DNA of 17,454 nt from a virus (Duplodnaviria; Heunggongvirae; Uroviricota; Caudoviricetes), in IMG/VR virus record IMGVR_UViG_2579778773_000004, positions 1 to 17,454 of that record, one strand, 5' to 3'. The notes beneath the pieces were generated by a model. That model was not told the DNA's origin and did no database searches. It saw only the letters and a program-made list of their open reading frames with translations. Below are positions 1 to 15,231 of this stretch, in pieces (position 1 is the stretch's first letter; every line of letters starts with the position of its first letter). A program made the translations under genes and the position numbers.

Positions 1-147
1 GTTATTACCCGATCTCGATGGAAGTTATTGAGTGATCTCCTTTCATGAAAATACGCATTAATAAACAGTTTCTCAATTATTAGTCAGCATCATCAGAAGA
101 AACCCCTCTCCAAAGATAATTTTATAAAATAATATAAATGTCCACGC

Positions 148-200
148 CTGGCACGGAGTAGACTGGCTATCTAAGCTAAAGGTCTGCTGTGAGCGAAAAC
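148..200. repeat. Island repeat copy C: imperfect hairpin element (arms tggcacggagtagac 149-163 / gtctgctgtgagcga 182-196, ending gcgaaaac)
   Basis: By hand alignment it is about 70% identical to copy B (2793-2845). It shares the 5' ctggcacggag and 3' gcgaaaac ends. The arms can pair, including G:U pairs if read as plus-strand RNA. Confidence 0.6.
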
Positions 201-516
201 CGGACATGTACATATCTGTCAAAAAAGCAATTTTTAGCTGCCACTTCCAGTGGATGGCGGTCGGTCAGGAGATAATAGAAACAAAACATAATCATTAAAT
301 GACTGAAAAATGAAAATTGTATAAACATTCATCTTAGATGACAATTTCAAATGCATCTCTATAATTTCCCCTAGTTCAAACCAGACAGAATCTAACCACT
401 GCAAGTAGTTTTAAAATCATAGGAAAATAACGTGCATCAGCAGAAGCATATGGAAAATACACAACACATTTCAAAAATACATACTTTTAAAATTTTCATT
501 GACTGATATTTTTAAT

Positions 517-1152
517 TTATTTTCGTAAAAAAATCGACGCCCTATCCGGGTTTACTTTACATAGATGAGAAAGATATAGCGCCCTTCGATTAAATTTGCC
601 TTCAGTAAGGTCATCAATGTTTTTCCTGAATGGGTACTTAATCCGTGCAGCTATGTCAAAGTCACTAATGCTTGCATGAGCTTTGGTAAGTTTAGCTATC
701 CCATAAGTGCCATAGCCAAAGTAGCAACAGGATATATATGCTATGCAGATATCATCTGCTGTTGTTGCTTTCCTGATAAGAATGGCTAATATTTGCTCTC
801 TTATTTTTCTTCGAACTGTTTTCTCATATCTCTTAGTTATTGTTCTAACAAACTGTTGGTCTATAGTACTTGCGCCTTGATGAATGTTTTTAAATAATCT
901 CAGATATATAGTTCTTAAAATAGCAACTGGATCAACTCCCCTGTGTAATAGTTGCCGATGATCCTCAGCCACTCTTAATATATCAATTAAAGATAAAGAT
1001 ATAGATCTTTCACTTATCGAACTAAGCCTTATATAATCAATACATTTATAATAATCTTCCATAATACTTTTAACCCTGAATTTAAAAACCATTTCTGCCA
1101 ATAGCAAGTATGGCAATGACAGTAAGGTAATCAAAAAGCGCTTCGCTGCCAT
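517..1152 (-). CDS. GT51-family (MtgA-like) peptidoglycan glycosyltransferase homologue with an N-terminal membrane anchor, 211 aa from the ATG at 1152
   Basis: The ORF carries the ordered GT51 motifs AEDHRQLLHRGVD (EDxxxxxHxGxD), GASTIDQQ (GxSTITQQ), RRKIRE (RKxxE), YISCCYFGYGTYGIA and KYPFR. Motif spacing resembles E. coli MtgA as I recall it. The N-terminus has a hydrophobic segment, FLITLLSLPYLLLAEMVF. I moved the start to the ATG at 1150-1152, which has an AGGAG Shine-Dalgarno 8 nt upstream. That start overlaps the end of the upstream ORF by 22 nt. Confidence 0.7.
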   Translation of the reverse strand: MAAKRFLITLLSLPYLLLAEMVFKFRVKSIMEDYYKCIDYIRLSSISERSISLSLIDILRVAEDHRQLLHRGVDPVAILRTIYLRLFKNIHQGASTIDQQFVRTITKRYEKTVRRKIREQILAILIRKATTADDICIAYISCCYFGYGTYGIAKLTKAHASISDFDIAARIKYPFRKNIDDLTEGKFNRRALYLSHLCKVNPDRASIFLRK

Positions 1153-1679
1153 TTCACGTCTCCTGATGTATCTGCAGCGGTGGACCAAAATTTGCCATGC
1201 ATAGCATCTGCATTCACCTTTTGGAAATACAGCAAAATGGTATAACTCCTTAACTCACCTTCCATTTTTATATTCAATGAGGCATGATTTTTCCTTAAGT
1301 AATTTCTCTTAATCACCCCTCGAACCTCTCCAATACTTCTATGCTTACCAGTGTATGGTCTTATATTATTATTGTTTTCAACGTCTTTTGTTTTCTCAAT
1401 AAACCCTTCAATATTATTGTTGTCACATATTAAAGTCAGTGTATAAAACGTTTTTAAATTCAAGTAAGGATTATACGCAGATTTTAGTGTTTTACATTCA
1501 ACTTCAAAGACGCCCGAAAAATTTGGTGGCGGTTTAATATATTCTTTGAATATAAAAATCAATACAGCCGCAATAAGAGTAGCAACAGCACCACTTAAGA
1601 TTTGATTTGTGGAAATAAAGGTTAGAGATGGCTCAAGCCATTCCCAAAATATGTTGAAAAAATCAGTAAATTTATTCAT
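1131..1679 (-). CDS. Hypothetical single-pass membrane protein (182 aa), the upstream partner of the GT51-like gene
   Basis: ATG start at 1677-1679. One clear hydrophobic helix (ILSGAVATLIAAVLIFIF) is followed by a roughly 135-aa Asn/Lys-rich soluble domain. I recognise no motif. The 3' end overlaps the start of the next gene, which suggests translational coupling. The Shine-Dalgarno is weak. Confidence 0.55.
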   Translation of the reverse strand: MNKFTDFFNIFWEWLEPSLTFISTNQILSGAVATLIAAVLIFIFKEYIKPPPNFSGVFEVECKTLKSAYNPYLNLKTFYTLTLICDNNNIEGFIEKTKDVENNNNIRPYTGKHRSIGEVRGVIKRNYLRKNHASLNIKMEGELRSYTILLYFQKVNADAMHGKFWSTAADTSGDVKWQRSAF

Positions 1680-2180
1680 AAATTTCTTTTGATAGTATGT
1701 TTTTTATATGATGTTACATTTTTGAGAAAAAAGCAACTTCGCCGATTAAAAACTATCTCGCTGGAATTTATGGGCATCATGTTATGAATACATTCTTATC
1801 CCATAGGGAATAAAACCCTATCTATAGAATAAAAATCCAAATTTTATCTTAATAAATCAGATAAAAGATACTTATACTACAAAGGTACTTGTGTAAGATC
1901 AAACTTTTAATCCTATAAGTTATAGATTGAAGCAACTGTGACTTATAGTGCGCACACTTAAGAATCTCCGATGACGATGGTAGCAGGAGACAACTTTTGA
2001 CAACTCACTCCTATTACCAACTTACTGACTTGCTCCGCGTTGAGAGATTTATAGTTATGCCAGCACTGTCCGCTTCTGGCACATTGCGGAAGGGCTAACG
2101 GCCCGGAGTAAGTGAGTAACGGATGTTTGCAAGCACTCTTACTGCTGACAATGATCGCATCCAAGATAAAATAGGTGGTG

Positions 2181-2696
2181 TCAAGGTACAGGTTCACCAA
2201 TATAAGTGTGTGTGCAGCAACGACATGTCACCTTAACGTCATCTCTTGTGATTGAAAGGTTTACCTGTTGCAGAATTCCATTCTCATCAACAAACAGACC
2301 TGGGTAAAAACTGCTTTCACCAATGCAGACTAAATCCCTTCGCTGATGCTCATGTAGCGCGACCAACCAGAATACCGGCTCGGTGGTATCAAGACGTCCA
2401 CATACTTCGCTGAATATTTCATTCCACGGCTTGCCAATCTCTTTGATCAGAAAATAAAACAACGGTGTGTAGTCTCGGCCACGCTTCTGTCTGCTATGCA
2501 TTGTCTCGCGCTTTACCAGTAGCTCATCTCCGACTTTTTTGCGATTTCGTTCCCACCGATACTCAGCACCCGGATTATTAGAATGGTGCCGCGTCGTCGT
2601 GTTGACGCTGCGATATAGTTTACGGGACTTATTCTGCTGATGAATACGCATAGCTCGATCTCGTACATCCTTTCTTTTGTGGGCCAGTAGCCCCAT
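2181..2696 (-). CDS. Hypothetical basic protein (171 aa) with an Arg/Lys-rich N-terminal half and a C-terminal CxCC cluster
   Basis: ATG at 2694-2696 with AAGG about 7 nt upstream. The N-terminal roughly 75 aa are rich in R/K/H, and the C-terminus contains VTCRCCTH. I recognise no family. The local GC (about 40-57% on sampled lines) is higher than in the flanking island genes. Confidence 0.5.
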   Translation of the reverse strand: MGLLAHKRKDVRDRAMRIHQQNKSRKLYRSVNTTTRHHSNNPGAEYRWERNRKKVGDELLVKRETMHSRQKRGRDYTPLFYFLIKEIGKPWNEIFSEVCGRLDTTEPVFWLVALHEHQRRDLVCIGESSFYPGLFVDENGILQQVNLSITRDDVKVTCRCCTHTYIGEPVP

Positions 2697-2792
2697 TCAG
2701 ACCTTGTGTTACTGTATAAAAAATGAACACCCTTAAAGGCTGTATCATTCTGCTCAAATACCATCCTACTGACAACTACCAAAGGTCGGATT

Positions 2793-2845
2793 CTGGCACG
2801 GAGCGGACAATCAAGTAGAACTGAAGGCCCGCTATGTGCGAAAAC
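2793..2845. repeat. Island repeat copy B: imperfect hairpin element (arms tggcacggagcgg 2794-2806 / ccgctatgtgcga 2829-2841, ending gcgaaaac)
   Basis: It lies between the metallopeptidase stop (2883) and the 171-aa ORF start (2696). It is homologous to copies A and C. Pairing is 11 of 13 positions if read as plus-strand RNA. Confidence 0.6.
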
Positions 2846-2882
2846 AGACAGACACAGATTGATCACAAACATACCTGAACCA

Positions 2883-3812
2883 TCAGGATTTTATATCCTT
2901 GTGTGGCTCTAATCCTTCAGAAAGGACTTTATCAAATGCAGCATATTGCCTTTGTAATTTACTTTCACATTCATACAGACTCTTTAAACTAACATCATCC
3001 ATAGATTGAAAGAGTCTTTTGTTATCAACTAAATAGGAGTATGCATTAAAAATAGAAACATCCATTATATCTTTCAGTTCTTCATCAGATAGTTTAGTCT
3101 TTTTACTTAAATGCTTAATCACATGTGACTGCAATGCATTTGCGCGAACCATGGCGGGAGGATATTTGCTATTCTTCCCTTCCAATTTACATAGAAAATT
3201 AAAGAAAAAAAATATTGATGTTAAAGATAAACTAACAAGTGTTTTCTCTTCTATTTTTTTCTCCGGGGCCTTTTTTATTGTATTTAAGACGACATCTGCA
3301 ACAAAGTATGCTGAGAATACATCTGCATCATACTCCATTAATGTTTTAATCTGATCTTCACTAAAATCTTCATCGACTACATTGTACCCCATTGAATAAA
3401 CTTGGTAATCACCAATCAGGTTTATTTCTTTACTTTTGGCTAATGATAAGTGTCCACGAGCGACATGTCCAAGTTCATGACCGAAAATATGGTGCCAAAT
3501 AAAGACACACCCTAACGCAACTGGAGCTTCCTTTTCTTTCAAGTCAGGGTATTCTCTCATGAAGAATTCTATATTTTCAGAAAGAATGTCAAACGTTATT
3601 GGTATCAACCCACTCAATAAAATAATATGGAAATTATTGTCTTTTTTTTGTGCGTGAGCATTAAGGTTAAAATCGTCCTTAATGTGCAGAGCTATTTTTT
3701 TACCATCCTCTTCAATAGCGGAGTTTATCTCTATCAATCCTTTTTTGAAGGTATCGTAAACAGGCAAGAAAAAACCACTTTCTATTTTCGAAATTTCATC
3801 ACGGGTCATCAT
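2883..3812 (-). CDS. ImmA/IrrE-type (M78, COG2856-like) zinc metallopeptidase, 309 aa, with an uncharacterised C-terminal domain
   Basis: HELGH is encoded at 3465-3479 within IWHHIFGHELGHVARGH. It is followed about 40 aa later by EYDADVFSAYF, which fits the ExxAxxF(A/S) third-ligand helix of ImmA/IrrE peptidases. The start is ATGATG, with AGGTGG 6 nt upstream. The gene is very AT-rich. Confidence 0.7.
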   Translation of the reverse strand: MMTRDEISKIESGFFLPVYDTFKKGLIEINSAIEEDGKKIALHIKDDFNLNAHAQKKDNNFHIILLSGLIPITFDILSENIEFFMREYPDLKEKEAPVALGCVFIWHHIFGHELGHVARGHLSLAKSKEINLIGDYQVYSMGYNVVDEDFSEDQIKTLMEYDADVFSAYFVADVVLNTIKKAPEKKIEEKTLVSLSLTSIFFFFNFLCKLEGKNSKYPPAMVRANALQSHVIKHLSKKTKLSDEELKDIMDVSIFNAYSYLVDNKRLFQSMDDVSLKSLYECESKLQRQYAAFDKVLSEGLEPHKDIKS

Positions 3813-3869
3813 ATTTCCACCTTTAACATGAAATCTAATTCTAATTGATAGGTCTACTTAGTTTCGCTC

Positions 3870-3898
3870 ATTGTACTATTTTATTAAAGTGGGTTGAA
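3870..3898 (-). promoter_or_regulatory. Candidate sigma70 promoter for the metallopeptidase gene (-35 TTCAAC, 17-nt spacer, -10 TACAAT on the minus strand)
   Basis: The minus strand reads ttcaac-ccactttaataaaatag-tacaat, with the -10 hexamer ending 57 nt upstream of the ATG at 3812. The -10 matches 5 of 6 and the -35 matches 3 of 6. AT-rich DNA yields such matches easily. Confidence 0.3.
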
Positions 3899-3935
3899 GG
3901 TTACATTTTTATATAGCATGTCTACTGTCCCTTTG

Positions 3936-3977
3936 TGGCACAGAGCGGACTGTCAGATTAGTTTTTACTCTGTGCCA
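3936..3977. repeat. Island repeat copy A: perfect 10-bp inverted repeat tggcacagag (3936-3945) / ctctgtgcca (3968-3977) with a 22-nt loop
   Basis: It lies between the G stop (4012) and the metallopeptidase start (3812). Its left half, tggcacagagcggac, matches copy B tggcacggagcggac at 14 of 15 positions. No U-tract follows on either strand. Confidence 0.65.
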
Positions 3978-4011
3978 TAGATGAGTAATCTCACACCAGA
4001 TCTAATACGAT

Positions 4012-4590
4012 TTATTGTGGCATTTCAGGCCATTCTATATCCGGAGCATCTTCCGGCTGAACGCGATTCAGTAGCACACGGTATTTTTTCCAGTGTGTCA
4101 GACTTAACTTTTCTTCCTCGGTAGCCATATCTAAATCGACAGCATCCTGCAGCGTGGCAATAATTTCACCTGCATATGCAATCAGCTCTTTCTTCTGAGA
4201 GTCAGCCGCTCTGACAAGCGCATCACGCTCTGCATTCTCATCATTCACCCACGCATTTCCGTTCCATTTCTGATAATCCCCATCCGGGGAAATGGCTGTC
4301 ACGTCTGGAGGTAATGCGCCAAGTTCAGAAATATAAATGGCTGCTCCTGTTTTTGTTTCATAGACAGTCTTTCCACGATGGTCTTCCACCAGATCCCATT
4401 TCATTTCATCTGCATTGAAAACGGCGGCAAAACCCACCGGAATATCTGGAGGTGCAATGTCTGTACTGTTTGCAGGAAGACCTGTATGCGGCGGAATATA
4501 TGCGTCACTTTCGCCAATAAATTCATTGGTTCCATCAAGTAAATTGAAAACGCGGATAGTTTGTGTCTCTGCACTCATTCTGAAAGTCAT
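4012..4590 (-). CDS. G: Tail fibre assembly chaperone (P2 gpG / Tfa family)
   Basis: It sits directly after H with a TAATG stop/start overlap. The sequence has Tfa-like features (N-terminal [22 protein letters not shown]; C-terminal [12 protein letters not shown]-type motif). At 192 aa it is longer than P2 gpG as I recall it, which is consistent with a swapped fibre/chaperone module. An alternative start at M5 is possible. Confidence 0.85.
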
Positions 4591-6365
4591 TATGCCAGCC
4601 TCACAATATAGTTATACGCAACGTTTTTTACGGTGTTCTCTGAATTACCTGTGGCACTTACAGTGACGGTATGACTATGCGCGCCAATCGCAATGGAATG
4701 GCTGTGAGCACCAATGCCAACCGTGTGATTATGCTGACCAATGTCGACTGTATGGGCGTGTGCTCCCGCAGAGCTTGACACCTGGTTGGTTCCTGATACC
4801 TGTACGCGTTGTTTACCCCCGATGGAGTCACCACCGTAACGACCACCGACAGTGTGTGTATGCGCTCCCGTATTGTTTGTCGTTTTTGTGCCGTGGTTAA
4901 ACGTGCTGACCGTTTTTGTCCCGTAATCAAACGAACTGGTTGTTTTCGTCCCTAAATCCGTACTGGATGCACTGGCACTGTGGGTATGTGATTTAATTCC
5001 GTCCTGTTCCTGTGATAATACGGCGCGACCACTGGCGGGTTTGCCCTTGATTGTCCAGCCGCGCATATCTGGAATCACCCCTGACGGATAAGCTACTGCA
5101 AGCAGGGGATAGGCTGCTTTATCAAAAGTCTGCCCCTGCATCAGGGCATAGCCTGTAGGTACTGAATCAGAAGGCCACGGGATTGGAGCACCTACCGGAA
5201 AGTTGTTGTACCCGTCATGATGAATCAACTTCCAGCCTTTAAAAACACCTGCGCAAACTGCCGCAAAACCGATTACATCTCCATTAAAATCAATGCCAAT
5301 AACAGTATTGTATCCCTGAGTATTGCTGTGTGCAGAGTTGATGTAGTGCTTCCAGGTGTGTCCTCCAGGCATTCCATTCTTTGCTGAGGAAGCATTAAAA
5401 AAGCCACCACGCGTACGTAAATCAGTAGCAATATCACTTATATTTTCGGCGTACTCATTTAATCCCGCTCCTTTAGGTACTCGCTTGTTTGCATTGTCAT
5501 TAGCAGCTTTCACTGCTTTCGGAGTCGCGGCAAGCGTTTCAGAATCGCTGTTGGTGGCACTACTTAGCTGGACAAGCCCTTTTCGTGCCGTGGTGGCGTC
5601 CTGTGCGGTGTATTTGCCATTAGCAAGGTCATATGCTGTCTTAACCGCCTTTGGCGTTGCTGCGAGCGTCTCAGATTCGCTGTTGGTGGCACTACTTAGC
5701 TGAACAAGACCTTTTCGCCCCGTGCTGGCGTCCTGAGCGGTATATTTTCCGTTAGCAAGGTCATACGCTGCCTTAACCGCCTTCGGCGTTGCGGCCAGCG
5801 TTTCAGATTCACTATTGGTCGCGCTGCTTAACTGAGTAAAACCTTTTGCAGTCAGTGAGGCGTCCGGATGGCGTCGTGACTGTTCGTGCTCTGCAATTTT
5901 GTCATCAACGTAATCCTGCGTCGCCATCACCGTTGTGGTGTCGATGGTCAGATCCACTGAGGCCACACTGCTGACGATAATGACCATGCGGCAGGTCTGC
6001 GAACGTCCTGAGCCTTCGGCAAGGGCAGGCTTATAACTTTCGGCCATGTTCGCCACGGCAATTAACGCACCGGTATCATCGTACAGACCAAGTTCACGCA
6101 TCCAGAAACCGCCCACCTCCGGCGGGATGACCAGCTCTGCGATAATATAATTACTGTGTCGATTGTCCTGACTGATTTTATTCAGGGCATGTCGCCAGAC
6201 CTCATTAACAAGTTTTGTCTGTCCGGCATCCGGCACCGGCAATTGACCGCCACCGTCCCCGACGGCCATCGTGGTAATGTTGACCTTCCTGCCTCCCGGT
6301 GCAGTCGCCGCTGCCAGCTTTGCTGCACCGGCGGTAGTGATAACGGTTTGGAACTTTACGCTCAT
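4590..6365 (-). CDS. H: Tail fibre protein (P2 gpH-like N-terminus, divergent receptor-binding C-terminus), 591 aa
   Basis: The N-terminal roughly 170 aa ([24 protein letters not shown]...[29 protein letters not shown]) closely match P2 gpH as I recall it. Fibre repeats, a collar-like segment ([28 protein letters not shown]...IPDMRGW) and HxH repeats follow. Confidence 0.95.
5487..5855 (-). repeat. Three tandem 129-nt (43-aa) phage tail-fibre repeats inside H ([39 protein letters not shown]-type)
   Basis: Residues about 171-293 of H contain three consecutive near-identical units. The nucleotide periodicity also shows up as the repeated [15 protein letters not shown] in the antisense ORF 5356..5703. 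Confidence 0.9.
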
Positions 6366-6375
6366 TATTCCTCAC

Positions 6376-6906
6376 TTATCCTGGGTAAACCGTAATAACA
6401 TCGCCGTCATAAGCCACACCACCGGCAAACAGATAACCGGGGATGTCCTGGGTAATATTCAGACCAATAAGGTGACGACTTGCAGGTTTGGCATCGGCAA
6501 TCAGCCGTTCCATTTCCAGATACATCTCCTCCGTGATGCCGCTTTCCAGTACGCCGATATCAAGCCGGAAGGTGCCGGGCGGGTCGCTGTTTTCCCACCA
6601 CTCCGTCACGTTGATGAGATAGCCGAGCGGCTCCACCACACGGCGAATCGCACCAATAGTGCCCTTATGGCAGTGAATGAAATACGCATCGCGGATAACG
6701 GCGCGTTTTGTCGCTTCCGGCCACTTTTCATCCCAGCGGTCAACCGAAAATGACCACGCCAGCCACGGCAGCAGATTTGCCGGACAGGTGTCCGGGTTCC
6801 ACAGCTCACGAATACTGACCGGCGTTTTTTCAATTTCCGCACAGGCTTTTGCGGCGGCAACTTCAAGCGGTGATGAGCCTGTCGGCAGCAGTCGCGAATC
6901 ATTCAT
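6376..6906 (-). CDS. I: Baseplate/tail protein gpI
   Basis: 176 aa, the same length and position as P2 gpI between J and H. Its start overlaps the J stop. The sequence (MNDSRLLPTGSSPLEVAAAKA...) matches my recollection of P2 gpI. Confidence 0.9.
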   Translation of the reverse strand: MNDSRLLPTGSSPLEVAAAKACAEIEKTPVSIRELWNPDTCPANLLPWLAWSFSVDRWDEKWPEATKRAVIRDAYFIHCHKGTIGAIRRVVEPLGYLINVTEWWENSDPPGTFRLDIGVLESGITEEMYLEMERLIADAKPASRHLIGLNITQDIPGYLFAGGVAYDGDVITVYPG

Positions 6907-7807
6907 CCGAGCCTCCGGTCACGACGCTGTATTCGGTACAGAAAGACGCCTGCGTACTGTTGAGCACGATGTCGGCCAGTGGTGCAGCCAGTTCGACACG
7001 CTGCACGCCTTCCACATGCAAAGCGGCATAAATGGCAGACAGACGGATGTCGCGCCCCAGCCGGTGCTGTGCCGTGATATACGCTTCCAGTTCTTTCACG
7101 GCGGCCGCGCGAATGGGTTCTCTTTCAGGACCAGGGTAAAGGTAAAGCGTGGCGTTTATCTGGTATTCAACGATGGCAGCAGACTGCACGTTCACACGAT
7201 CGGCCACCGGTCTGACGTCCTCGCCATTAAGGGCGTTACGCACCACAGCCAGCAGGTCTTCGGATGCGACACCGTTATTTTCACGTGACAGCACAGAGAT
7301 GGTGACACAGGCCGGAGACGGACTGGTGACAGAGATATCCGCGACACGCCCGTCGGCACTGCGACCATGATACTGATAGGCGCCCACCGACCCGGCGACG
7401 CTTAAACCTTCAAACGCCTGCTGAATACGCAGACGATAATCCGTGTCAGATTCCATCACTGCCGGTGTCGGCGGGATGGTCGAATCATCTGCCGGGGTGA
7501 TAATCAGGCGCGCGGTGTTGTAATTGGCACCAATCACATCAAGGTCATTACCAGCGGCACAGGCCAGCATCACCGCCCGTGCGGCCTCATTCACACGCTG
7601 ACGCCAGATAAGCTCACGATAAGCATTTTCCTCCAGCAGTTTGACGAGAGGCTCGGATTCCAGCGTCAGGGTACGGGCAACCGCCTCCTGCTGGTCTTCC
7701 GGGTAAAGGGAAATCAGTGTCGCCTTGCGTTCGGCAAGAATGGTTTCAAAGTCCAGCTCCTCGACCACATCCGGTGCGGGTAGCTGGTTCAGGTCGATAA
7801 TCGGCAT
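6899..7807 (-). CDS. J: Baseplate wedge protein gpJ (T4 gp6-like)
   Basis: 302 aa with P2 synteny W-J-I. The N-terminus MPIIDLNQLPAPDVVEELDFETILAERKA is typical of gpJ. Confidence 0.93.
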   Translation of the reverse strand: MPIIDLNQLPAPDVVEELDFETILAERKATLISLYPEDQQEAVARTLTLESEPLVKLLEENAYRELIWRQRVNEAARAVMLACAAGNDLDVIGANYNTARLIITPADDSTIPPTPAVMESDTDYRLRIQQAFEGLSVAGSVGAYQYHGRSADGRVADISVTSPSPACVTISVLSRENNGVASEDLLAVVRNALNGEDVRPVADRVNVQSAAIVEYQINATLYLYPGPEREPIRAAAVKELEAYITAQHRLGRDIRLSAIYAALHVEGVQRVELAAPLADIVLNSTQASFCTEYSVVTGGSDE

Positions 7808-7811
7808 GGTT

Positions 7812-8159
7812 TCAACTCACAGGGATGGTTAACGAAAGTTGCTGGCCGGTGTCGTTGTGCTGGCCGTTTAACGTAACTGTCATTCGCCCGTCAAAACTGC
7901 GCTCAGTGGTGACGGATGACAGGGTGACGCGGGGTTCCCATTTCAGCACCGCCATGTAACAGGCGACCTTAATCTGCAACTCAAGCGCCGGGGTCTGCGG
8001 CTGGTCAATCATTGACGCCAGCAACGAGCCGTAATCACGACGCATCACCCGTGAGCCGACCGGTGTGCGCAGGATATCGCCGATACTCTGGCTGATATGC
8101 TCAAGGTCAGTGACAGTCAGGCCATCACTGCAATTCATTCCGAGATAACGCGCTGTCAT
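7812..8159 (-). CDS. W: Baseplate wedge protein gpW (T4 gp25-like)
   Basis: 115 aa with an ATGA overlap with the V stop. The SIGDILRTPVGSRVMRRDYGS motif is typical of the GPW/gp25 family. Confidence 0.93.
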   Translation of the reverse strand: MTARYLGMNCSDGLTVTDLEHISQSIGDILRTPVGSRVMRRDYGSLLASMIDQPQTPALELQIKVACYMAVLKWEPRVTLSSVTTERSFDGRMTVTLNGQHNDTGQQLSLTIPVS

Positions 8160-8791
8160 AGAGGACTCCCGGTTGTGCCGCCGCTGTCGCCGGGGTGTTT
8201 ATGGGTATGCAGCACCTTACCGTTTGATGAGAGTTCACCACCGGTGTGTTCAATGTTGCCGCGCATCGTCCCACCCTTCTGCACTTCCAGCGTGCCGGTA
8301 GTCAGTTTGTTAGTGCAGACCACCTCCGGTGTGTCCAGGGTGACGCGGGTTGATGCTTTCACCATGACCACCGGCACCGTGGCAGTAACAGAATCAGAAG
8401 CCGTCACGCTGGCCGTTTTAATTCCGCTTACCGTGAGTGCACTGGTTTCGGGTTCATACTCAATCACCGCCCCGTCAGGGAAACGGATATGCAGGGCATC
8501 CGCCGACGCAGACGGCGCGGGGTTATCGCCGGAATAAATCCCCGGCAGAACGAACGCCGTGTCGAGTTCACCGCCCACAGCCAGAATCAGCACCTGTTCC
8601 CCCACGGAAGGTGCCCACCATGTGCGCGAACGTCCGGCACGATGGGTCAGCCACTGAAGCCAGTCGGTGCACATGCCGCCGGTCTGCACACGGCAGCGAC
8701 CGGCGTTAAGGTCGGTTTCGACGATAATGCCGGTGCGGATCATGTTGCGCAGTGCGCGCGCGAGTTCCTGAATATTTGCGAGAGTGTTCAT
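8156..8791 (-). CDS. V: Baseplate central spike protein gpV
   Basis: 211 aa, first gene after the S-V intergenic gap, as in the P2 V operon. The C-terminal HTHKHPGDSGGTTGSPL tip motif is typical of P2 gpV. Confidence 0.93.
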   Translation of the reverse strand: MNTLANIQELARALRNMIRTGIIVETDLNAGRCRVQTGGMCTDWLQWLTHRAGRSRTWWAPSVGEQVLILAVGGELDTAFVLPGIYSGDNPAPSASADALHIRFPDGAVIEYEPETSALTVSGIKTASVTASDSVTATVPVVMVKASTRVTLDTPEVVCTNKLTTGTLEVQKGGTMRGNIEHTGGELSSNGKVLHTHKHPGDSGGTTGSPL

Positions 8792-8803
8792 AACGGGAAG
8801 GAT

Positions 8804-8825
8804 GCCGCCGGGTCATACCGGCGGC
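8804..8825 (-). other. GC-rich perfect hairpin (gccgccgg / ccggcggc, 6-nt loop) in the S-V intergenic region
   Basis: An 8-bp perfect inverted repeat lies 33 nt downstream of the S stop and about 12 nt upstream of the V ATG. On the minus strand it is followed by ATCCTTCCCGTT, which is only weakly U-rich. In P2 the O-operon/V-operon boundary lies here. Its role as a terminator, attenuator or leader structure is not resolved. Confidence 0.3.
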
Positions 8826-8857
8826 AATGTGACGATGAGGTGTCAGGAATGGCACAA

Positions 8858-9310
8858 CTAACGGTCGAGGTGAGCCAGAATAATCTCTTCAATCATCTGC
8901 ACATCCTCACCGGTAAAGCCGAGCAGAGGACGCGCCGGATAATCAATTTTCTTACCGTCTTTCCGGGTTTCTTCCGACAGACCGAACTGATGCACGCTGG
9001 CGATTTTCGGTGACTTCCCGCCGTAAAACTCCATTGATGCCTGTTCCGGGCTGGCGTGGATATGCAAAAAACGACTGGTGATAAGTTTCGCAAACATTTT
9101 TCGCTTAACACGACCAGTCTTTTTTCTGGCGCTCTGCTGCTGGCGTGGCGCGTAGGGTGTGCCGTCCGGGGCTTTCTGAGCCATCACCCGACGCTGCTGA
9201 CTCTGCCGCAGACGCTTCGCCAGCTCTGCACTCAGCCGCCGACGCCCTGACGGTGACAGCGACTCAATAAGTCCGGTCAGCCGGTCTTCAAAACGCTTAA
9301 ACTCATTCAT
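8858..9310 (-). CDS. S: Tail completion protein gpS
   Basis: 150 aa with P2 synteny R-S. Its start overlaps the R stop by 8 nt. The sequence MNEFKRFEDRLTGLIESLSPSGRRRLSAELAKRLRQSQQ matches my recollection of P2 gpS. Confidence 0.9.
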   Translation of the reverse strand: MNEFKRFEDRLTGLIESLSPSGRRRLSAELAKRLRQSQQRRVMAQKAPDGTPYAPRQQQSARKKTGRVKRKMFAKLITSRFLHIHASPEQASMEFYGGKSPKIASVHQFGLSEETRKDGKKIDYPARPLLGFTGEDVQMIEEIILAHLDR

Positions 9311-9770
9311 CCCACTTGCTCACCAGTTCGCCATTGATATAAAGCTCCATCGGGCGGGTGACCGGCTCCGGCGGCGTGGGTTCCGGGATATTCTTCACAT
9401 GCAGCGCGCCGTCCACCTCACTGACCAGCGTGCGCTCGGTCAGCATCAGGCTGATGCTGATATCAAAGCTGCTGTCATTGTTGATGTCTGCATAAAACGT
9501 GAAGCCCTTTTTCTGGCCTTCGTCGGTGGTCATGATGTCGGGCTGATTTTCCCGCAGCCACGCCAGCACCGGCACGATGAGCAGGTCAAAATCACCGGTA
9601 AAGTCGGTCACAATGACATTGAGCGTGTAACGCTTTTCGAATGACAACGACGCCGCCAGTGTGGAGGCAATACTCCCGTTATCCACGAATATCCGCAGCA
9701 TATCGGGGTTAGTTTTCAGCACCGTGACGGCATCAGTCAGCGCCCTGCGCAGGCTGTCGGGTTTGAGCAT
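9303..9770 (-). CDS. R: Tail completion protein gpR
   Basis: 155 aa with P2 synteny after the lysis cassette. The sequence MLKPDSLRRALTDAVTVLKTNPDMLRIFVDNGSI matches my recollection of P2 gpR. Confidence 0.9.
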   Translation of the reverse strand: MLKPDSLRRALTDAVTVLKTNPDMLRIFVDNGSIASTLAASLSFEKRYTLNVIVTDFTGDFDLLIVPVLAWLRENQPDIMTTDEGQKKGFTFYADINNDSSFDISISLMLTERTLVSEVDGALHVKNIPEPTPPEPVTRPMELYINGELVSKWDE

Positions 9771-10023
9771 CGTTTTCGTCCTGACAGTGTTTAATCATTT
9801 TTACCTGGCTGGCACAACGTGCCAGCGCGTTCTCGAGCTGCCGGATATCGGCACTTAAATCGCCGTTCGTCTCCGGGTCACTGCCCGGCATCGGGCAAAG
9901 GCTCACTTTCGGGCAGGCGTTGGCGACAATCACTGGCGTCGGTGCAGGCGGGGCGCTGGTGCAACCGGCGCACAGCATCAGGCAGGTCAGCACCGTACCA
10001 GCGGCGAAAATCTTCGTTTTCAT
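9733..10023 (-). CDS. lysC: LysC, an Rz1-like outer-membrane lipoprotein spanin subunit embedded out of frame in lysB and running into R
   Basis: The ATG at 10021-10023 lies inside ORF 9733..10140 and gives 96 aa: MKTKIFAAGTVLTCLMLCAGC..., a signal peptide ending in a lipobox-like LCAGC, then a Pro-rich segment. The architecture is the same as P2 lysB/lysC. Confidence 0.8.
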   Translation of the reverse strand: MKTKIFAAGTVLTCLMLCAGCTSAPPAPTPVIVANACPKVSLCPMPGSDPETNGDLSADIRQLENALARCASQVKMIKHCQDENDAQTRQPAQGAD

Positions 10024-10303
10024 TAAGTAACCTCGTGATGGTTTTCTCGCGCTGTGCTTCACGCTTCGCGGCGTTCTCCAGTTCCTGACGCAGTGCCACC
10101 TGCGCCAACTCGTTTTTGTCTGCCCTGGTGAGGGCAGCATGAAGCTGATTTTTCAGCATGATGATGGTCGTCTGCTGTTCACTGGCGACGTTGTTCACCC
10201 TGTCCAGCGAGGCGCGCAGGCTGGCGTTTTCATGCTTCGCCAGAAACAGTCCCGCCACCGCCAGCGATAACAACACAACCAGCACAATCATCAGCTTTGA
10301 CAT
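9878..10303 (-). CDS. lysB: LysB, an Rz-like inner-membrane spanin subunit
   Basis: 141 aa with an N-terminal TM segment (LMIVLVVLLSLAVAGLFL) followed by a coiled-coil-like charged region. Its position after lysA matches P2. Confidence 0.85.
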   Translation of the reverse strand: MSKLMIVLVVLLSLAVAGLFLAKHENASLRASLDRVNNVASEQQTTIIMLKNQLHAALTRADKNELAQVALRQELENAAKREAQREKTITRLLNENEDFRRWYGADLPDAVRRLHQRPACTDASDCRQRLPESEPLPDAGQ

Positions 10304-10716
10304 GGTTCCCGCCCCTCAAGACGCTGACGGCAGGCCGTGCGTATCAGCCGGAAAAACAGCGACGCCACGAGATAAATCAGCGCAGTAAAAATCCACCCGG
10401 TGGCAACCAGCGAGATAAACGTCGCCACCATCACTACCAGAGCCGCCGCCCGTCTGCACCACGGCACCGGCTGCAAAAACAGCGACGTGACAATCTTCAC
10501 GGCCAGCGATTCCGGTGGCAACTCCCGCCCGTAGCGTTCCAGCACATACTCCGTGGCATACACGCCAACACCACCGGCAACCACACAGATAACCGTCACC
10601 AGAATCGCCCAGGCAGCGACAAAATTGACGGCCACGCTCTGCGGGTAAATCAGGGACAGTGCCAGCATCAGCGCCAGCGACACATTCAGCATCAGTGAAA
10701 GGGATAATTTCTTCAT
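10291..10716 (-). CDS. lysA: LysA, a multi-pass membrane lysis-timing protein (antiholin-like)
   Basis: 141 aa with about 4 hydrophobic segments. It lies between K and lysB, as in P2. Confidence 0.85.
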   Translation of the reverse strand: MKKLSLSLMLNVSLALMLALSLIYPQSVAVNFVAAWAILVTVICVVAGGVGVYATEYVLERYGRELPPESLAVKIVTSLFLQPVPWCRRAAALVVMVATFISLVATGWIFTALIYLVASLFFRLIRTACRQRLEGREPCQS

Positions 10717-10730
10717 GGTGTTTACTCCGT

Positions 10731-11228
10731 TTAAGCCAGTACGCCGCCAGCGGTACGCCAGACGGTGACCAGTTTTTCCAGTGAATGCTCACGCTGACCG
10801 TAACCGGCACCCGGCAGGGACGCCCAGATATTTCGACAGCGTGAAATGGCGCGCTCAATACGTCCCGCCCGGATGTCATCCAGCGCACCGCGTTCGCGGA
10901 TCAACTGAATGGCGAGTCTGTCCTGTGACAGCGGACTGAAATCCGGCAGGGCAAGCTGTTTGCGGTAATGCGGCCAGAACAGGTAAAGCTGCTGATAGCG
11001 ACCGGAGGCCGTGGATTTTTCACCGCGACGGTTAAACACCTTCGCCGGTCGGCCATGTGCGAACGGGTGGTCACTGTAGTCGGTGAAGATTTCCGGCTTC
11101 CCGTCCAGTCCGGTGACTATCACGTCATAGCCACGGTTTTTCGTCAGCGGATGATTCGCCGTCCCTTCGGACACCGCCAGCATGTCGAGAAAGGCGGCGA
11201 TATTCTGGTGCGTGTTAATTACCGGCAT
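10731..11228 (-). CDS. K: Endolysin gpK (lambda R-like lysozyme/transglycosylase fold)
   Basis: 165 aa. The sequence MPVINTHQNIAAFLDMLAVSEGT...GRYQ carries the conserved catalytic-Glu context (SEGT). It has a TAATG overlap with holin Y. Confidence 0.93.
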   Translation of the reverse strand: MPVINTHQNIAAFLDMLAVSEGTANHPLTKNRGYDVIVTGLDGKPEIFTDYSDHPFAHGRPAKVFNRRGEKSTASGRYQQLYLFWPHYRKQLALPDFSPLSQDRLAIQLIRERGALDDIRAGRIERAISRCRNIWASLPGAGYGQREHSLEKLVTVWRTAGGVLA

Positions 11229-11509
11229 TACGGTTTCCCCCTGCCCTTAAAGCGGCGCTGAATGGCAATCTCAATCACCTGATAACCGGCGATACCCAGC
11301 ATGGAGCCGATGCCGCACACCGCAGGCAGTGACAGGTCAGGAAACTGCACCAGAACAACACCGGCAACCATCGAGACAAAACCACCGAGCAACATGCGCC
11401 CGATAAACAGACGCGGGGTGATGGGTTCACCACCGGCAAGCACCTTGCCGACAACAATCAGCACCCCAATCATGAAAAGCGACAGGACGCTTTTTTCTTC
11501 TGCTGTCAT
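11228..11509 (-). CDS. Y: Holin gpY
   Basis: 93 aa with three hydrophobic segments and a basic C-terminus (RRFKGRGKP). Position and length match P2 Y. Confidence 0.9.
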   Translation of the reverse strand: MTAEEKSVLSLFMIGVLIVVGKVLAGGEPITPRLFIGRMLLGGFVSMVAGVVLVQFPDLSLPAVCGIGSMLGIAGYQVIEIAIQRRFKGRGKP

Positions 11510-11512
11510 GCG

Positions 11513-11716
11513 TTACTCCCACAGATTGACAGTTTCAGCCACGGGCGCGGTCTGAACGTCGGGCAGTTCGACGGCGGTGCCGTGTGGCAGCACCGCACCC
11601 AGTTCAGCCAGTCCCGGATTTGCGGCGAGCACGGTCTCAACCACGCCCTCAGTGCGCCCGTAATACCGGACACAAATGGCGTCGAGCGTGTCGCCCTGTA
11701 GCGCAAAGGTCTTCAT
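11513..11716 (-). CDS. X: Tail protein X (LysM-like)
   Basis: I trimmed the ORF-track 90-aa ORF to the ATG at 11714-11716, which gives the 67-aa sequence MKTFALQGDTLDAICVRYYGRTEGVVETVLAANPGLAELG... matching my recollection of P2 gpX. It has a TGATG overlap with the L stop. Confidence 0.9.
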   Translation of the reverse strand: MKTFALQGDTLDAICVRYYGRTEGVVETVLAANPGLAELGAVLPHGTAVELPDVQTAPVAETVNLWE

Positions 11717-12225
11717 CAGATTTGACTCACGATGCAGCGCGGCTTGTCCTGGATGCGCGCCACTGCCCAGCGCATATCCCGCCACAACTCATCAATGGTG
11801 CTGTCAATGCTGTCGGCCTTCTTGTCGCCTTTCGCACTGGCATCCACGCCGCGGTAACGCTCATAAAGCGACGCGGTCGCCATCGCACACACGGCGCGCT
11901 CGTAGTAAAATACTTTGATGCTTTCACCGTCGATGTCGTCCGCCGGGACGTCCGCCAGACGCGTAAAACCGGCGGCAATTTTCTGTTCGCGGTACTCGTA
12001 CAGCTCCGCATTCGTCTCCGCCATACCTGACTTGATGGCCTCACGCAGACGGGCGGGGGCGACGGTCTGCTCAAGGCGCATACGTTCCCGGACGCGCTTC
12101 GGGTCGATATCGGGAAAAAAGAACGTGTTTTTAATCACCGGCTCGTCGCCTGCCGGTTGCGGGATGACCACCGTACCCTCACCGGATACAGGAGCCTCCT
12201 TTCGCGGAATAATCAGCGTCATCAT
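11716..12225 (-). CDS. L: Head completion/stabilisation protein gpL
   Basis: I trimmed to ATGATG at 12220-12225 (GAGGT Shine-Dalgarno upstream), giving 169 aa, MMTLIIPRKEAPVSGEGTVV..., the length and sequence I recall for P2 gpL. Confidence 0.9.
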   Translation of the reverse strand: MMTLIIPRKEAPVSGEGTVVIPQPAGDEPVIKNTFFFPDIDPKRVRERMRLEQTVAPARLREAIKSGMAETNAELYEYREQKIAAGFTRLADVPADDIDGESIKVFYYERAVCAMATASLYERYRGVDASAKGDKKADSIDSTIDELWRDMRWAVARIQDKPRCIVSQI

Positions 12226-12324
12226 GACTACCTCTGAAAAGTCGGGCGGTGGACGCCGGTGCAGTGTCAGATGATTCACCCTCACTGACCGGCGTGCCGC
12301 CCTGGCGCGGGGCGCATTCGGTTG

Positions 12325-13068
12325 TTAACTGGCTTTCTTTTTCGGGCGTCCACGTTTTGCCGGGGTCACGCTCCGGGTCTTACGCGGGGTGCGGGTGACC
12401 GCTTTGGGCTGCGGCTCCGGCTTCGGTTTCAGCTCCCGCTCCAGTCGTTCAATCTCTTTTTTAACGCCTGCCTGACAGTCGAGCTGTGTCGCACGTTGCA
12501 GGTGCGCCAGCGCACCGGCGGCATCACCAGCGTCACGCAGAAACAGACCGGTGATTTTGTGCAGATTTGCGCGCACTTCATCAGGCATGTCAGCCGTGGC
12601 GGTCAGTTCAAGGGTGTCCGTCAGCAGGCGGGTATCCACGGATTCACCGGCAGCGTGGGCGCGCATGGCCGCGAGCGCGACCTCCTCGGTGAACATGTAC
12701 GGCGGGGTGCGGCGGTGTTTACCCGGCATGGTCAGACCGTACTTCAGGGCATAACGGGCAATCTCCAGCGCACCGGCAATATCGCCGGTATCCAGACGCC
12801 ACAGCATGACCGTCATCAGAATGTCATCCTGTGCACCTTTGCCCTGCTCCAGCACGCCGTTCACCCACGGCAACCAGAACGGCAGCAGTTCGCGTTTTTT
12901 CGCGGCCTTCAGCTCTTTTGAATAAATCGCTTTCAGTGTGCGCTGGTCTGCGGCGAGCTTAACCAGCATCTGCTCATAGACAGTTGCATGTCGCAGCGGG
13001 GCGGCTTCCCGCTGCGCGGTCATCGCTGCCGAGACCCGCATCATGTGGCGCTGTGCGGGACTCGTCAT
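12325..13068 (-). CDS. M: Terminase small (endonuclease) subunit gpM
   Basis: 247 aa with P2 synteny N-M-L and a basic C-terminal tail (PRKTRSVTPAKRGRPKKKAS). Confidence 0.9.
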   Translation of the reverse strand: MTSPAQRHMMRVSAAMTAQREAAPLRHATVYEQMLVKLAADQRTLKAIYSKELKAAKKRELLPFWLPWVNGVLEQGKGAQDDILMTVMLWRLDTGDIAGALEIARYALKYGLTMPGKHRRTPPYMFTEEVALAAMRAHAAGESVDTRLLTDTLELTATADMPDEVRANLHKITGLFLRDAGDAAGALAHLQRATQLDCQAGVKKEIERLERELKPKPEPQPKAVTRTPRKTRSVTPAKRGRPKKKAS

Positions 13069-13071
13069 CGG

Positions 13072-14145
13072 TTACGCTCCCGGCTCTGCGGTCGCTTTAG
13101 CCGGTGTGGAGAAGTCACCGACCTTGATTTTTTCCACCAGACAACCGGCGGCGTAGTCTTCCACCACGTAATCAATGTTCATTGACTCGTAGTTCTCCAC
13201 GCGGTCGAGTTTCGGGTTTTCCTCAATCACGCGGCGATGGCTGTCATCCATGTAGTAGATGGACAGGTTTTCCAGCTTCGTGATGAGCATCGCATCCGCC
13301 GGGAAGTACGGGACGCGTACCGCTGGCAGGTTGCCGATGCGTTTCTGGCTGATGATGACGTCAGCGGCCAGCATTTCGCTGTTGTCCTGCTCCTTGTTGA
13401 CGATGGGAAAATACTTGTCCGCCAGTAGCTGACGTCCCACAATCACCACAAGGTCAGGTTCTTCCTGATACCACGGCTCAATCAGGTTGTTGGTCGCATC
13501 CATCACCAGTGCATCAAGGCTGGCATAATCACCGCCCTTACCCACGCGGATGACCTCAGAGGTGGTGCGGCCTTCCTCGTCAGTGACCTTGCTCATCACG
13601 CGCGCCGGGGCTTCATTGCGGTATTTCTGCAGCCAGCCGACCGCCACATCCTGCAGCATCGGATTACTGTTGCGGTCAGAGGTTTCGGCACGCTTCACGC
13701 CGTTAAAACCGGCCATGATGAAATCAAGGGACTGGCGTTTGATAATGGCGTTACGGATACGGAGCTGGAAATCCTGATAACGCGCCCACAGGTCCAGCGT
13801 TTTGTAGCGGATATAAAAATCGAAGTTAACCTGGTCGCATTCGTACTTGTTTGACGCCAGCTTCGAGAAGTCCTTCGGCTGACGCTCGGTGCCACCGGCG
13901 GTGTCGGTGGTGCTGGCAATGGGGCCGGTGACACCGATACCAATTTTTTCCCCTTTCATTTCGCTGACCGGCACAATGTTGATGCGGGTCAGAAAGTCAG
14001 AGGACTCCTGCATGGTGTTCATCAGGGTCTGGGTGACCGACGGTTCAACGGTGAATTTTTTCGACACATCACCGGCGTCGATGCCGTTCAGTTCGGCAAC
14101 ACGGGACAGGTAGGCATTAAATTTAAAACGGGTTTCCTGGCGCAT
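13072..14145 (-). CDS. N: Major capsid protein gpN
   Basis: 357 aa, the same length as P2 gpN. AGGA Shine-Dalgarno. The sequence MRQETRFKFNAYLSRVAELNGIDAGDVSKKFTVEPSVTQ matches my recollection. Confidence 0.95.
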   Translation of the reverse strand: MRQETRFKFNAYLSRVAELNGIDAGDVSKKFTVEPSVTQTLMNTMQESSDFLTRINIVPVSEMKGEKIGIGVTGPIASTTDTAGGTERQPKDFSKLASNKYECDQVNFDFYIRYKTLDLWARYQDFQLRIRNAIIKRQSLDFIMAGFNGVKRAETSDRNSNPMLQDVAVGWLQKYRNEAPARVMSKVTDEEGRTTSEVIRVGKGGDYASLDALVMDATNNLIEPWYQEEPDLVVIVGRQLLADKYFPIVNKEQDNSEMLAADVIISQKRIGNLPAVRVPYFPADAMLITKLENLSIYYMDDSHRRVIEENPKLDRVENYESMNIDYVVEDYAAGCLVEKIKVGDFSTPAKATAEPGA

Positions 14146-14203
14146 ATTTGTTCCTGAAATTAAGGGTTAATCGTGAAGGTTTTCCCGGACTGACTGACGC
14201 CGG

Positions 14204-15058: not shown

Positions 15059-15231
15059 TGTCAGGAGTCCTGAATAGTGATTAGAGGAGTCACATGTCGG
15101 CATCAGTTTCCCGACGATGCGCATCCTCTGCCATCAGTCCCGGATGGCTTATCACTGACACAACAGCACCTTAGCGAATCGCGGGGCGCGACTCAGTAGC
15201 CTTGCCGTGTATTCATCACGGCGAGGTATTC
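15059..15231. promoter_or_regulatory. Divergent intergenic region expected to hold the Ogr-dependent late promoters P_O (minus strand) and P_P (plus strand)
   Basis: A 173-bp gap lies between the divergently transcribed O and P genes, which is where P2 places P_O and P_P. I could not find an exact TGT-N12-ACA activator box by eye; the closest is TGG-N12-ACA at 15145-15162. The call therefore rests on synteny. Confidence 0.4.

Follow-up and report, generated by a model that had tools for sequence, protein, structure and literature searches.

What is the role of the short repeats that separate the cargo genes of a P2-like prophage? The question is raised by a stretch of 17,454 nucleotides of a caudoviricete virus (IMG/VR record IMGVR_UViG_2579778773_000004, positions 1 to 17,454; hereafter the window, meaning this whole stretch), which corresponds to the late region of such a prophage, read on the minus strand, with 4 kb of AT-rich cargo to the left of the tail-fibre assembly gene G. 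An earlier note on this DNA described three copies of a hairpin repeat bracketing the cargo modules, and proposed either module-boundary sequences that promote exchange between P2-like phages or a cis-acting RNA or DNA structure. The evidence presented here makes it very likely that the repeats act as duplex DNA and mark recombination joints in an array of gene cassettes; the regular two-site junctions of the window tie the prophage cargo to a cassette system that extends across Enterobacterales and for which a dedicated enzyme is plausible.

A search pattern derived from two of the copies, B and C, retrieved 63 contigs from IMG/VR and at least 120 from genomes, and a profile hidden Markov model (HMM), built from 55 non-redundant, unrelated copies and used in an nhmmer scan, found 440 copies in 192 loci, far beyond chance. 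In the window the model recovered all three copies at the places given before and in a single orientation: copy C at 135-210 (60 bits) and copy B at 2783-2844 (37 bits), both as full elements, and copy A at 3924-3959 (18 bits), of which only the left half is present (model positions 5-40). The degenerate trace suspected at about 2074-2110 turned out to be a genuine fourth copy, D, at 2064-2123 (16 bits), a full element with a degenerate right half and a 9-nt gap in the alignment. The real length of the element is about 75 nt, not about 50 bp; the TGGCAC motif, the inner boxes and the GCGAAAAC tail had been correctly recognised, but the box upstream of TGGCAC had been overlooked.

The consensus and all pairing statistics were derived from 224 non-redundant full copies. 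The consensus reads AAC GTCCGCT YC TGGCAC RR AGCGGAC, followed by 18 variable nt and by GTCCGCT R TGAGCGA RR AGCGGAC RTT; a junction is therefore composed of four 7-nt boxes (arms 1 to 4) in alternating orientation, which form two 24-bp sites, site 2 lying 41 nt downstream of site 1. In each site the inverted 7-bp boxes GTCCGCT and AGCGGAC surround a 10-bp spacer (layout 7-10-7, or 9-6-9) with an asymmetric centre, TGGCAC in site 1 and TGAGCGA in site 2, that is at least 95% invariant, while the adjoining spacer bases vary. Simple tyrosine recombinases act on box-spacer-box sites with short asymmetric centres and exchange strands within the centre, and inverted elements around a short asymmetric centre, as in core sites of the lox, FRT or dif type, are what the 224 copies display. 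In the window, on the plus strand, junction C comprises site 1 at 140-163 (GTCCACG CC TGGCAC GG AGTAGAC, with TGGCAC at 149-154), the 18-nt variable linker core at 164-181 and site 2 at 182-205 (GTCTGCT G TGAGCGA AA ACCGGAC, with TGAGCGA at 190-196). On the same strand, junction D has a site 1 at 2068-2091 (GTCCGCT TC TGGCAC AT TGCGGAA) and a degenerate site 2 at 2113-2125 (TGAGTAA CGGATG) that has lost arm 3, and junction B has a site 1 at 2785-2808 (GTCGGAT TC TGGCAC GG AGCGGAC) and a site 2 at 2827-2849 (GCCCGCT A TGTGCGA A AACAGAC) with one substitution in the centre and a degenerate arm 4. Copy A, 62 nt from the stop codon of G, is a terminal site 1 at 3927-3950 (GTCCCTT TG TGGCAC AG AGCGGAC; plus strand) that joins the last cassette to the P2 backbone.

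The repeats had been read as stem-loops whose inner stems differ between copies while pairing is kept. Any copy can indeed be drawn as one long hairpin (arm 1 with arm 4, arm 2 with arm 3) or as two small palindromes, and the pairing reflects the fact that each arm is a version of the same box. The supposed covariation disappeared in the larger alignment, where pairing and mutual information are no higher than in column shuffles: arms 1 and 4 are paired in 0.775 of cells observed versus 0.778 in shuffles, arms 2 and 3 in 0.922 versus 0.917, and mutual information does not exceed 0.09 bit in any pair. Polymorphic box positions vary independently, for example G/T at the first base of arm 1 and C/A at the last base of arm 4, and likewise C/T and G/A at the fourth box positions; contingency tables and shuffles showed apparent compensations, such as TTCCGCT/AGCGGAA, to be due to chance. 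Likewise, no covariation was found between the two ends of one cassette. It is the sequence that is conserved and not a structure, which points to protein recognition of duplex DNA.

The boundaries of homology between loci are located in the same centres. Strain NB4833 carries positions 57-3950 of the window at 99.9% identity in a non-P2 island, and the match ends after TGGCACA of copy A (about 3942). The segment from D to B (2062-2809) recurs alone at 96% identity in many E. coli genomes, for example in an island adjacent to ychF (L001), in agreement with the view that the copies bracket cargo modules, and the divergence of L001 from the window on the right-hand side starts after TGGCACG of junction B. 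The first cassette of the window is also found in locus L046, in which homology switches inside TGAGCG on the left and after TGGCAC of junction D on the right, and within TGAGCGA of junction C homology to both L046 and L024 switches. The assignment of breakpoints rests on pairs in which the shared flank is at least 99% identical and the other flank is unrelated. In such pairs the first difference at site 1 is the base after TGGCAC (four of four left-shared pairs), the last difference at site 2 is the base before TGAGCGA (five of five right-shared pairs), and 8 of 11 pairs with identical 35-nt linkers first differ 1-2 bases after TGAGCGA. Homology thus switches at the edges of the invariant centres, as in simple core sites with exchange within the central region. 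Since each junction has two switch points, the piece formed by arm 2, loop and arm 3 is a separately exchangeable linker, and each cassette extends from one TGAGCGA centre up to the TGGCAC centre that follows. Breakpoint mapping by maximum-likelihood change points was rejected as misleading, because conserved positions carry no information.

The organisation of the arrays is equally regular. In multi-copy loci 384 of 388 elements share the majority orientation, 93% of elements are intergenic, and successive sites alternate in 484 of 518 cases, with 41 nt from site 1 to site 2 and a median of 1230 bp from site 2 to the next site 1. Half-elements are typical of array ends, a lone site 2 at the start and a lone site 1 at the finish (97 half-elements consist of site 1 only and 65 of site 2 only), and in phage P2 itself nhmmer detects such lone site 2 and lone site 1 half-elements around fun(Z). 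The median length of 225 non-redundant cassettes is 1256 bp and slightly over half of them hold a single open reading frame (ORF). P2-like phages, the setting named in the earlier note, do carry the element, in the G-FI (Z) region, but it is not specific to them: it is also present in lambdoid prophages, between replication genes and dinI, a lexA-like gene, the gene of a 347-aa protein and an antiterminator-like gene (named by eye), in integrase islands, in a tRNA-adjacent island and in large plasmids, the hosts being Enterobacteriaceae, Erwiniaceae, Yersiniaceae and Pectobacteriaceae (Enterobacterales). The same cassettes are common to P2-like prophages, non-P2 islands and plasmids. Chromosomal arrays outside E. 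coli hold ordinary accessory cargo, such as LysR-type regulators, transporters and oxidoreductases, as judged from the ORF sequences. The copies do not behave as REP/BIME, ERIC or MITE-type repeats, as they form co-oriented arrays within mobile elements; the string GTGAGCG may be common to the element and the ERIC2 primer.

Two individual arrays may be described here. In locus L053 the array-closing site 1 (6046-6140) abuts the 3' end of a tRNA gene (...GGTTCAAATCCTCTCGTGCCGACCA), and the array therefore fills a tRNA-integrated island. A gene pair encoding a BetT transporter and a DUF2254 protein (WP_005032116.1, WP_000625667.1) is bounded by two copies of site 1, an example of a frame made by two sites of the same type; this segment occurs in the NB4833 chromosomal island (L002, 8880-12553) and in an IncY plasmid (L208, 198-3903), where it lies two segments from a recombinase gene.

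The product of that gene is the candidate enzyme. Clustering of the ORFs of all loci revealed, in six loci, a protein of about 200 aa that matches Pfam Phage_integrase (1.4e-18) and in which the catalytic motifs of tyrosine recombinases are apparent by inspection: Arg (LRGCD), His-x-x-Arg (HSMRR), His (LLGH) and Tyr (VRY), with a spacing as in XerD. Matches to named families are far below their cut-offs, with 48.3 bits against 335 for XerC, 29.2 against 329.6 for XerD, 16.4 and 15.8 against 435 and 265 for the NCBIfam integron-integrase models, and 25.6 and 17.2 against 222 and 221 for Fim-type tyrosine invertases, and no solved structure matched the sequence at E values up to 0.001. The frame of the gene is constant in eight of eight complete loci, which come from five genera and the IncY plasmid: three E. 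coli chromosomes, among them that of Nissle 1917, the plasmid, Phytobacter, Buttiauxella, Enterobacter and Leclercia. The Nissle 1917 protein is WP_001305361.1. First comes ...AAC GTCCGCT YC TGGCAC, then, behind a GC hairpin, the coding sequence in antisense orientation to the element, and after a GTCCCTT box the frame ends in TGAGCGA RR AGCGGAC RTT. Framed by the TGGCAC and TGAGCGA centres, the gene thus takes the place of a linker, with one exchange point on either side. When IMG/VR was searched with the protein, independently of the repeats, 17 full-length homologues (identity at least 85%) were obtained; GTGCCA-NN-box lies 28-30 nt after the stop codon in 16 of the 17, and box-NN-TCGCTCA ends 47-50 nt before the ATG in all 15 with upstream DNA. 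The recombinase gene is framed in a fixed register in about 20 distinct contexts, and the outer boxes vary among these loci, as expected if the neighbours are different cassettes. The suggestion that the repeats are module-boundary sites promoting exchange by site-specific recombination is in this way supported by the copies at cassette boundaries, by the breakpoints within the centres and by the embedded recombinase gene.

Of 5426 complete E. coli genomes 864 carry the gene, and relatives of the candidate enzyme occur across Proteobacteria. Close homologues (77-97% identity) were found in Providencia, Proteus, Pantoea, Idiomarina and marine Gammaproteobacteria, and the Providencia, Idiomarina and marine homologues examined keep the hairpin-GTGCCA-RR-AGCGGAC arrangement after the stop codon. 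The Shine-Dalgarno sequence and ATG are enclosed by a 12-bp inverted repeat, ACTCAAATCTCC / GGAGATTTGAGT (L194, about 11962-12010; also L142, L198 and L208), and in the Providencia version, AATTAAATCTC / GGAGATTTAATT, the pairing is kept; by analogy with what is known for transposases, this repeat over the ribosome-binding site and start codon probably serves fold-back control of recombinase translation. In Idiomarina sp. X4 (L197, 6001-11351) an 81%-identical recombinase lies beside a two-component system, an EptA-type phosphoethanolamine transferase, a PAP2 protein and a diacylglycerol kinase. A 'XerC-type' recombinase, a possible member of this family, has also been reported adjacent to mcr-10 (PMC7067168). 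Two other kinds of enzyme were considered and rejected: P4-type integrases lie beside the arrays of L001 and L024 at opposite array ends and are absent elsewhere, as fits island integrases and not a cassette enzyme, and a serine recombinase acting on the GC at the exact centre of both spacers was discarded, as no serine recombinase is associated with the arrays.

Based on the anatomy of the sites and the position of this gene, we favour with reasonable confidence a mechanism in which the tyrosine recombinase of about 200 aa acts at the joints. The dedicated enzyme would bind the boxes and exchange strands within the invariant centres, and as the two centres differ, recombination would be heterospecific, that is, restricted to site 1 with site 1 and site 2 with site 2; binding, cleavage positions and incompatibility of the centres we infer. 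Two crossovers, one at site 2 and one at site 1, would then suffice to swap a cassette framed by these sites from one joint-bearing replicon to another; alternatively, recombination between consecutive sites of one type could release a cassette and its linker as a circle, which could be re-inserted at any site of that type. The slot from TGGCAC to TGAGCGA can hold a short linker, a whole phage backbone or the recombinase gene. Such a two-centre mechanism would account for the alternation of site types and the co-orientation of arrays, for the half-sites at array ends, with the phage backbone as a very long linker, and for the independent shuffling of linkers and the presence of the same cassettes in unrelated mobile elements.

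Several observations weigh against this mechanism. The enzyme and the sites are linked by position in the sequence only, and most arrays, including that of the window, have no recombinase gene nearby; as the gene is found in only 16% of E. coli genomes, the enzyme would have to act in trans, and rarely. Beside the recombinase gene site 1 has no recognisable arm 2, a GC hairpin being found in its place, the N-terminal core-binding domain is almost absent from this small protein, and distant homologues (42-66% identity, including those of Alphaproteobacteria) are mostly devoid of the motif. As for the sites, 7% of successive ones are of the same type, and no unoccupied site was found, all P2-like phages examined with a synthetic 'empty' query carrying at least one cassette. 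In addition, the exchange point cannot be placed within the centres, because these are invariant, and looser identity thresholds (first or last mismatch, 95% flank identity) give scattered breakpoints, since single substitutions mimic breakpoints.

Some of these points fit better an explanation in which the repeats are mere shared patches and cassettes are exchanged by homologous recombination (RecA, or phage Red/RecET-type) with no dedicated enzyme. Tens of bases of homology suffice for phage Red/RecET-type systems; the junctions offer about 75 nt at about 80% identity, many arrays lie in lambdoid prophages that encode their own recombinases, the small recombinase is absent from most arrays and some breakpoints fall outside the centres at looser thresholds. 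Homologous recombination is also named among the possibilities in a 2026 paper on P2 and P4 hotspots (PMC13586616). Nevertheless, it leaves unexplained the four boxes at fixed spacing and the two invariant centres kept across families of Enterobacterales, the clean switches within 6-7 bp, the co-orientation and alternation of sites, and a tyrosine recombinase gene framed in register by two centres, and we regard it as unlikely.

A further alternative, also site-specific, is that the element acts as a folded single strand in the manner of attC, arm 1 pairing with arm 4 and arm 2 with arm 3, and the recombinase acting on the hairpin. The layout of four boxes, two simple sites and a variable middle is that of attC, TGGCAC and TGAGCGA would lie opposite each other in the fold, and the long imperfect hairpins of copies C and B are somewhat more stable than those of shuffled sequences (z = -1.9 and -2.4, respectively). 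Against these features stand the conservation of sequence with no covariation among the 224 copies, the frequent lone half-elements at array ends, the presence of two exchange points per junction and not one, the lack of an orientation bias of cassette genes and the score of the recombinase (16 bits against an integron-integrase cut-off of 435), which together render this reading rather improbable. The likeness to integrons extends to arrays of mostly one- or two-gene cassettes, to imperfectly palindromic four-box sites with a variable middle, to a tyrosine recombinase, to arrays without a recombinase gene (CALINs) and to cassettes common to several replicons. In contrast to integrons, in which attC is conserved as a structure, has a single crossover point and is associated with co-oriented genes, the junctions described here are conserved in sequence, have two crossover points, lack an R'/R'' (GTTRRRY) consensus and form arrays that end in half-sites, with genes on either strand, many cassettes having their own promoters in GenBank annotations. 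Furthermore, the recombinase, of 200 aa, has no IntI-specific features and falls outside the integron integrases, and its gene lies inside a junction and not beside an attI site.

Since each cassette ends in imperfect inverted repeats of about 19 bp, TGAGCGA-RR-AGCGGAC-RTT and the mirror GTGCCA-RR-AGCGGAC-RTT, these could be taken for the terminal inverted repeats of non-autonomous transposons (mobile insertion cassettes, MITE-like) mobilised by a transposase encoded elsewhere, and GenBank records of 2004 do label the P2 copies 'inverted repeats'. Direct duplications were not found at cassette ends, so that target-site duplications are missing and the sequences outside the ends are inverted and not direct; the spacing between neighbouring cassettes is always 35 nt, the two ends of a cassette do not covary, and no transposase is associated with the arrays, the sole conserved enzyme gene in register being that of the tyrosine recombinase. 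We therefore consider the transposon reading very improbable.

Least credible of all, to the point of being hardly tenable, is a transcript-level signal after each cassette (a terminator, RNA stabiliser or processing site, akin to the cis-acting hairpin of the earlier note): the elements are intergenic, can form stem-loops and, in the window, each lie 3' of a gene with all cassette genes on one strand, but the orientation of genes in the 225 cassettes bears no relation to that of the element (203 ORFs on the same strand, 233 on the opposite one), which argues against such a role, conservation peaks in the would-be unpaired internal loop, there is no covariation, no U-tract follows any copy on either strand, as already pointed out, and an Rfam scan of window positions 1-4300 (E up to 10) gave no match at the repeats. 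An intrinsic terminator finds no T-run on either strand, orientation being independent of gene strand, and the sigma-54 promoter and terminator readings were both ruled out by the sequence and by the orientation statistics.

The one perfect stem, that of copy A, has a different origin. The pairing is real, but the partner of TGGCACAGAG (3936-3945) is CTCTGTGCCA (3968-3977), which belongs to the P2 backbone and not to a second half of the repeat; it lies within sequence downstream of G (3951-3980, plus strand) that is kept beside G in P2 and in other P2-like loci. The hairpin TGGCACAGAG...CTCTGTGCCA (3936-3977; in phage P2, L068, about 803-866) is a conserved feature of the P2 backbone with a fold z of -3.4, in which the site-1 centre serves as one arm. 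An inverted site may have left it as a remnant, or it could mark where the late operon transcript ends.

Part of the element has been on record for a long time. GenBank entries AJ512676-AJ512685, which cover the 'proviral Z-region' of P2-EC phages, carry annotations of a 'left inverted repeat' (113 bp) and a 'right inverted repeat' (91 bp) that have the same sequence as the sites described here and the same place in P2-like coliphages, between G and the pF promoter of FI (fun(Z) locus). In AJ512680, which was checked, the 'left inverted repeat' ends in GTCCGCTATGTGCCAAGAGCGGAC, that is, site 1 on the other strand, and CTTCGCTCCTCGCTCAAAGCAGAC, the complementary strand of site 2, opens the 'right inverted repeat'; copy A corresponds to the 'left inverted repeat' of the ten records. 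The title of the 2004 work of Nilsson, Karlsson and Haggard-Ljungquist (Mol Biol Evol 21:1) already proposes site-specific recombination. Because of these records and, as far as its title goes, of that article, neither the terminal repeats nor the idea of a mediated insertion is new. The records hold only the two terminal repeats, of 91-113 bp, of phages with a single insert, whereas the internal two-site junctions, the multi-cassette arrays, the two-centre anatomy, the wider occurrence and the embedded recombinase go beyond them.

Among systems built on simple core sites, the closest in logic is the engineered exchange with heterospecific Cre/lox or Flp/FRT sites, in which the boxes are alike, the asymmetric centres differ, the cores have no arm-type sites and a double reciprocal exchange swaps a cassette without its backbone. 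The system described here differs in being natural, in its boxes of 7-9 bp instead of 13 bp and in its unrelated and much smaller enzyme, and the incompatibility of its centres is presumed. The pdif modules of Acinetobacter plasmids and IMEX likewise are accessory modules with tyrosine-recombinase core sites and a 6-bp centre, found in many plasmid contexts. The pdif sites are XerC/XerD sites, served by the host enzymes of dimer resolution, and flank modules in inverted orientation, in contrast to the co-oriented sites reported here and to a candidate that is neither XerC nor XerD (48 and 29 bits against 335 and 330); by eye, the boxes GTCCGCT/AGCGGAC look unlike the arms of the 11-6-11 dif consensus. 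The candidate resembles FimB and FimE in its size of about 200 aa and in being almost wholly a catalytic domain, and the sfx core of the shufflon (Rci) contains GTGCCA(A), the complement of TGGCAC, which may be a coincidence. Fim and Rci enzymes invert DNA between inverted sites, whereas the sites here are direct (384 of 388) and the outcome would be exchange or excision; the candidate thus has neither the inverted sites nor the family membership of the Fim-type tyrosine DNA invertases.

The exchange of cargo at phage hotspots has been discussed by others. Rousset et al. 2022 mention cos ends and homologous recombination as a speculation for hotspot exchange, and a hotspot survey of 2024 does not mention the repeats. 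A study of September 2026 on thousands of P2 and P4 elements reports very fast swapping, near-identical systems in unrelated mobile elements and cryptic loci, and transposable elements nearly absent from the hotspots; of the recombination processes it says that they "still need to be elucidated" (PMC13586616). In the searchable literature, the content of Nilsson et al. 2004 aside, no description was found of the junction anatomy, the non-P2 arrays, the two-centre logic or the recombinase; likewise, the literature on integron-like or tyrosine-recombinase cassette systems in enterobacteria and on P2 hotspots held no description, and a full-text search for the motif strings returned noise only.

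More tentatively, and with doubts about its full extent, we propose that the joints represent an unrecognised, integron-independent exchange platform across Enterobacterales, in which site-framed segments may be swapped among phages, the helpers of satellites, islands and plasmids by a minimal recombinase whose own gene would be swappable in the complementary slot, and which might be the missing mechanism behind hotspot swapping. Phage and satellite hotspots are now a main source of new anti-phage defence systems, and the sites offer a testable mechanism for at least the P2-like tail-gene (Z) hotspot and a lambdoid hotspot, one that could explain the rapid swapping of cargo at phage defence hotspots. 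The HMM and pattern signature delimits cassettes to the base pair, which would permit sharper guilt-by-association searches for defence genes, and a candidate enzyme is available for experiments. If the proposal is true, a natural two-site exchange system served by a 200-aa recombinase would also interest genome engineers as a tool.

Concerning the cargo of the window itself, the leftmost unit is incomplete. Positions 1-57 are the outer end of ISEc12, an insertion sequence (IS) of the IS21 family that is multi-copy in 1705 of the 5426 E. coli genomes; the window therefore begins within an IS, which cuts the cassette to the left of junction C. What is left of this cassette (58-154) is its right end, with arm 1 and TGGCAC of junction C, and positions 57-134 are identical to 5001-5078 of E. 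coli CE0011b (L003), where they are preceded by a 780-bp gene cassette. The prophage of CE0011b is the same, otherwise identical and with intact flanks; its cargo runs on to the tail-sheath gene FI, which a lone site 2 adjoins, and in the window the FI side lies beyond the end. In CE0011b an IS2 (9021-10249) separates gene G from the terminal site 1 (copy A), so that with ISEc12 in the window two different IS are found at the edges of one cargo array in two strains.

Cassette 1 (190-2082, from TGAGCGA of junction C to TGGCAC of junction D) recurs in L046 between other neighbours and holds two ORFs on the minus strand, one of 223 aa (517-1188) with a transglycosylase domain (Pfam PF00912 Transgly, 1.8e-22) and, upstream of it and overlapping it by 58 nt, one of 182 aa (1131-1679). 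Cassette 2 (2113-2799) is found at 95.9% identity in the integrase island adjoining ychF (L001) and in many other genomes, with the same two junctions as bounds, and contains a 171-aa ORF (2181-2696, minus strand) with no family match. An 80-aa ORF that overlaps junction D (1958-2200) is probably spurious. Cassette 3 (2835-3941) contains the 309-aa ORF (2883-3812, minus strand) that had been called a metallopeptidase and that matches no Pfam or PADLOC model. None of the four cargo ORFs matched a PADLOC defence model, and only the 223-aa protein has a family match. To the right of the array, gene G (4012-4590, minus strand; Pfam Caudo_TAP) is followed by H, I, J and further genes. Within G, on the minus strand at 4049-4247, a sub-threshold match to the Rfam family IS009 (RF02111) spans the full length of the model, with 52.9 bits against a gathering score of 117 and an E value of 2e-10.

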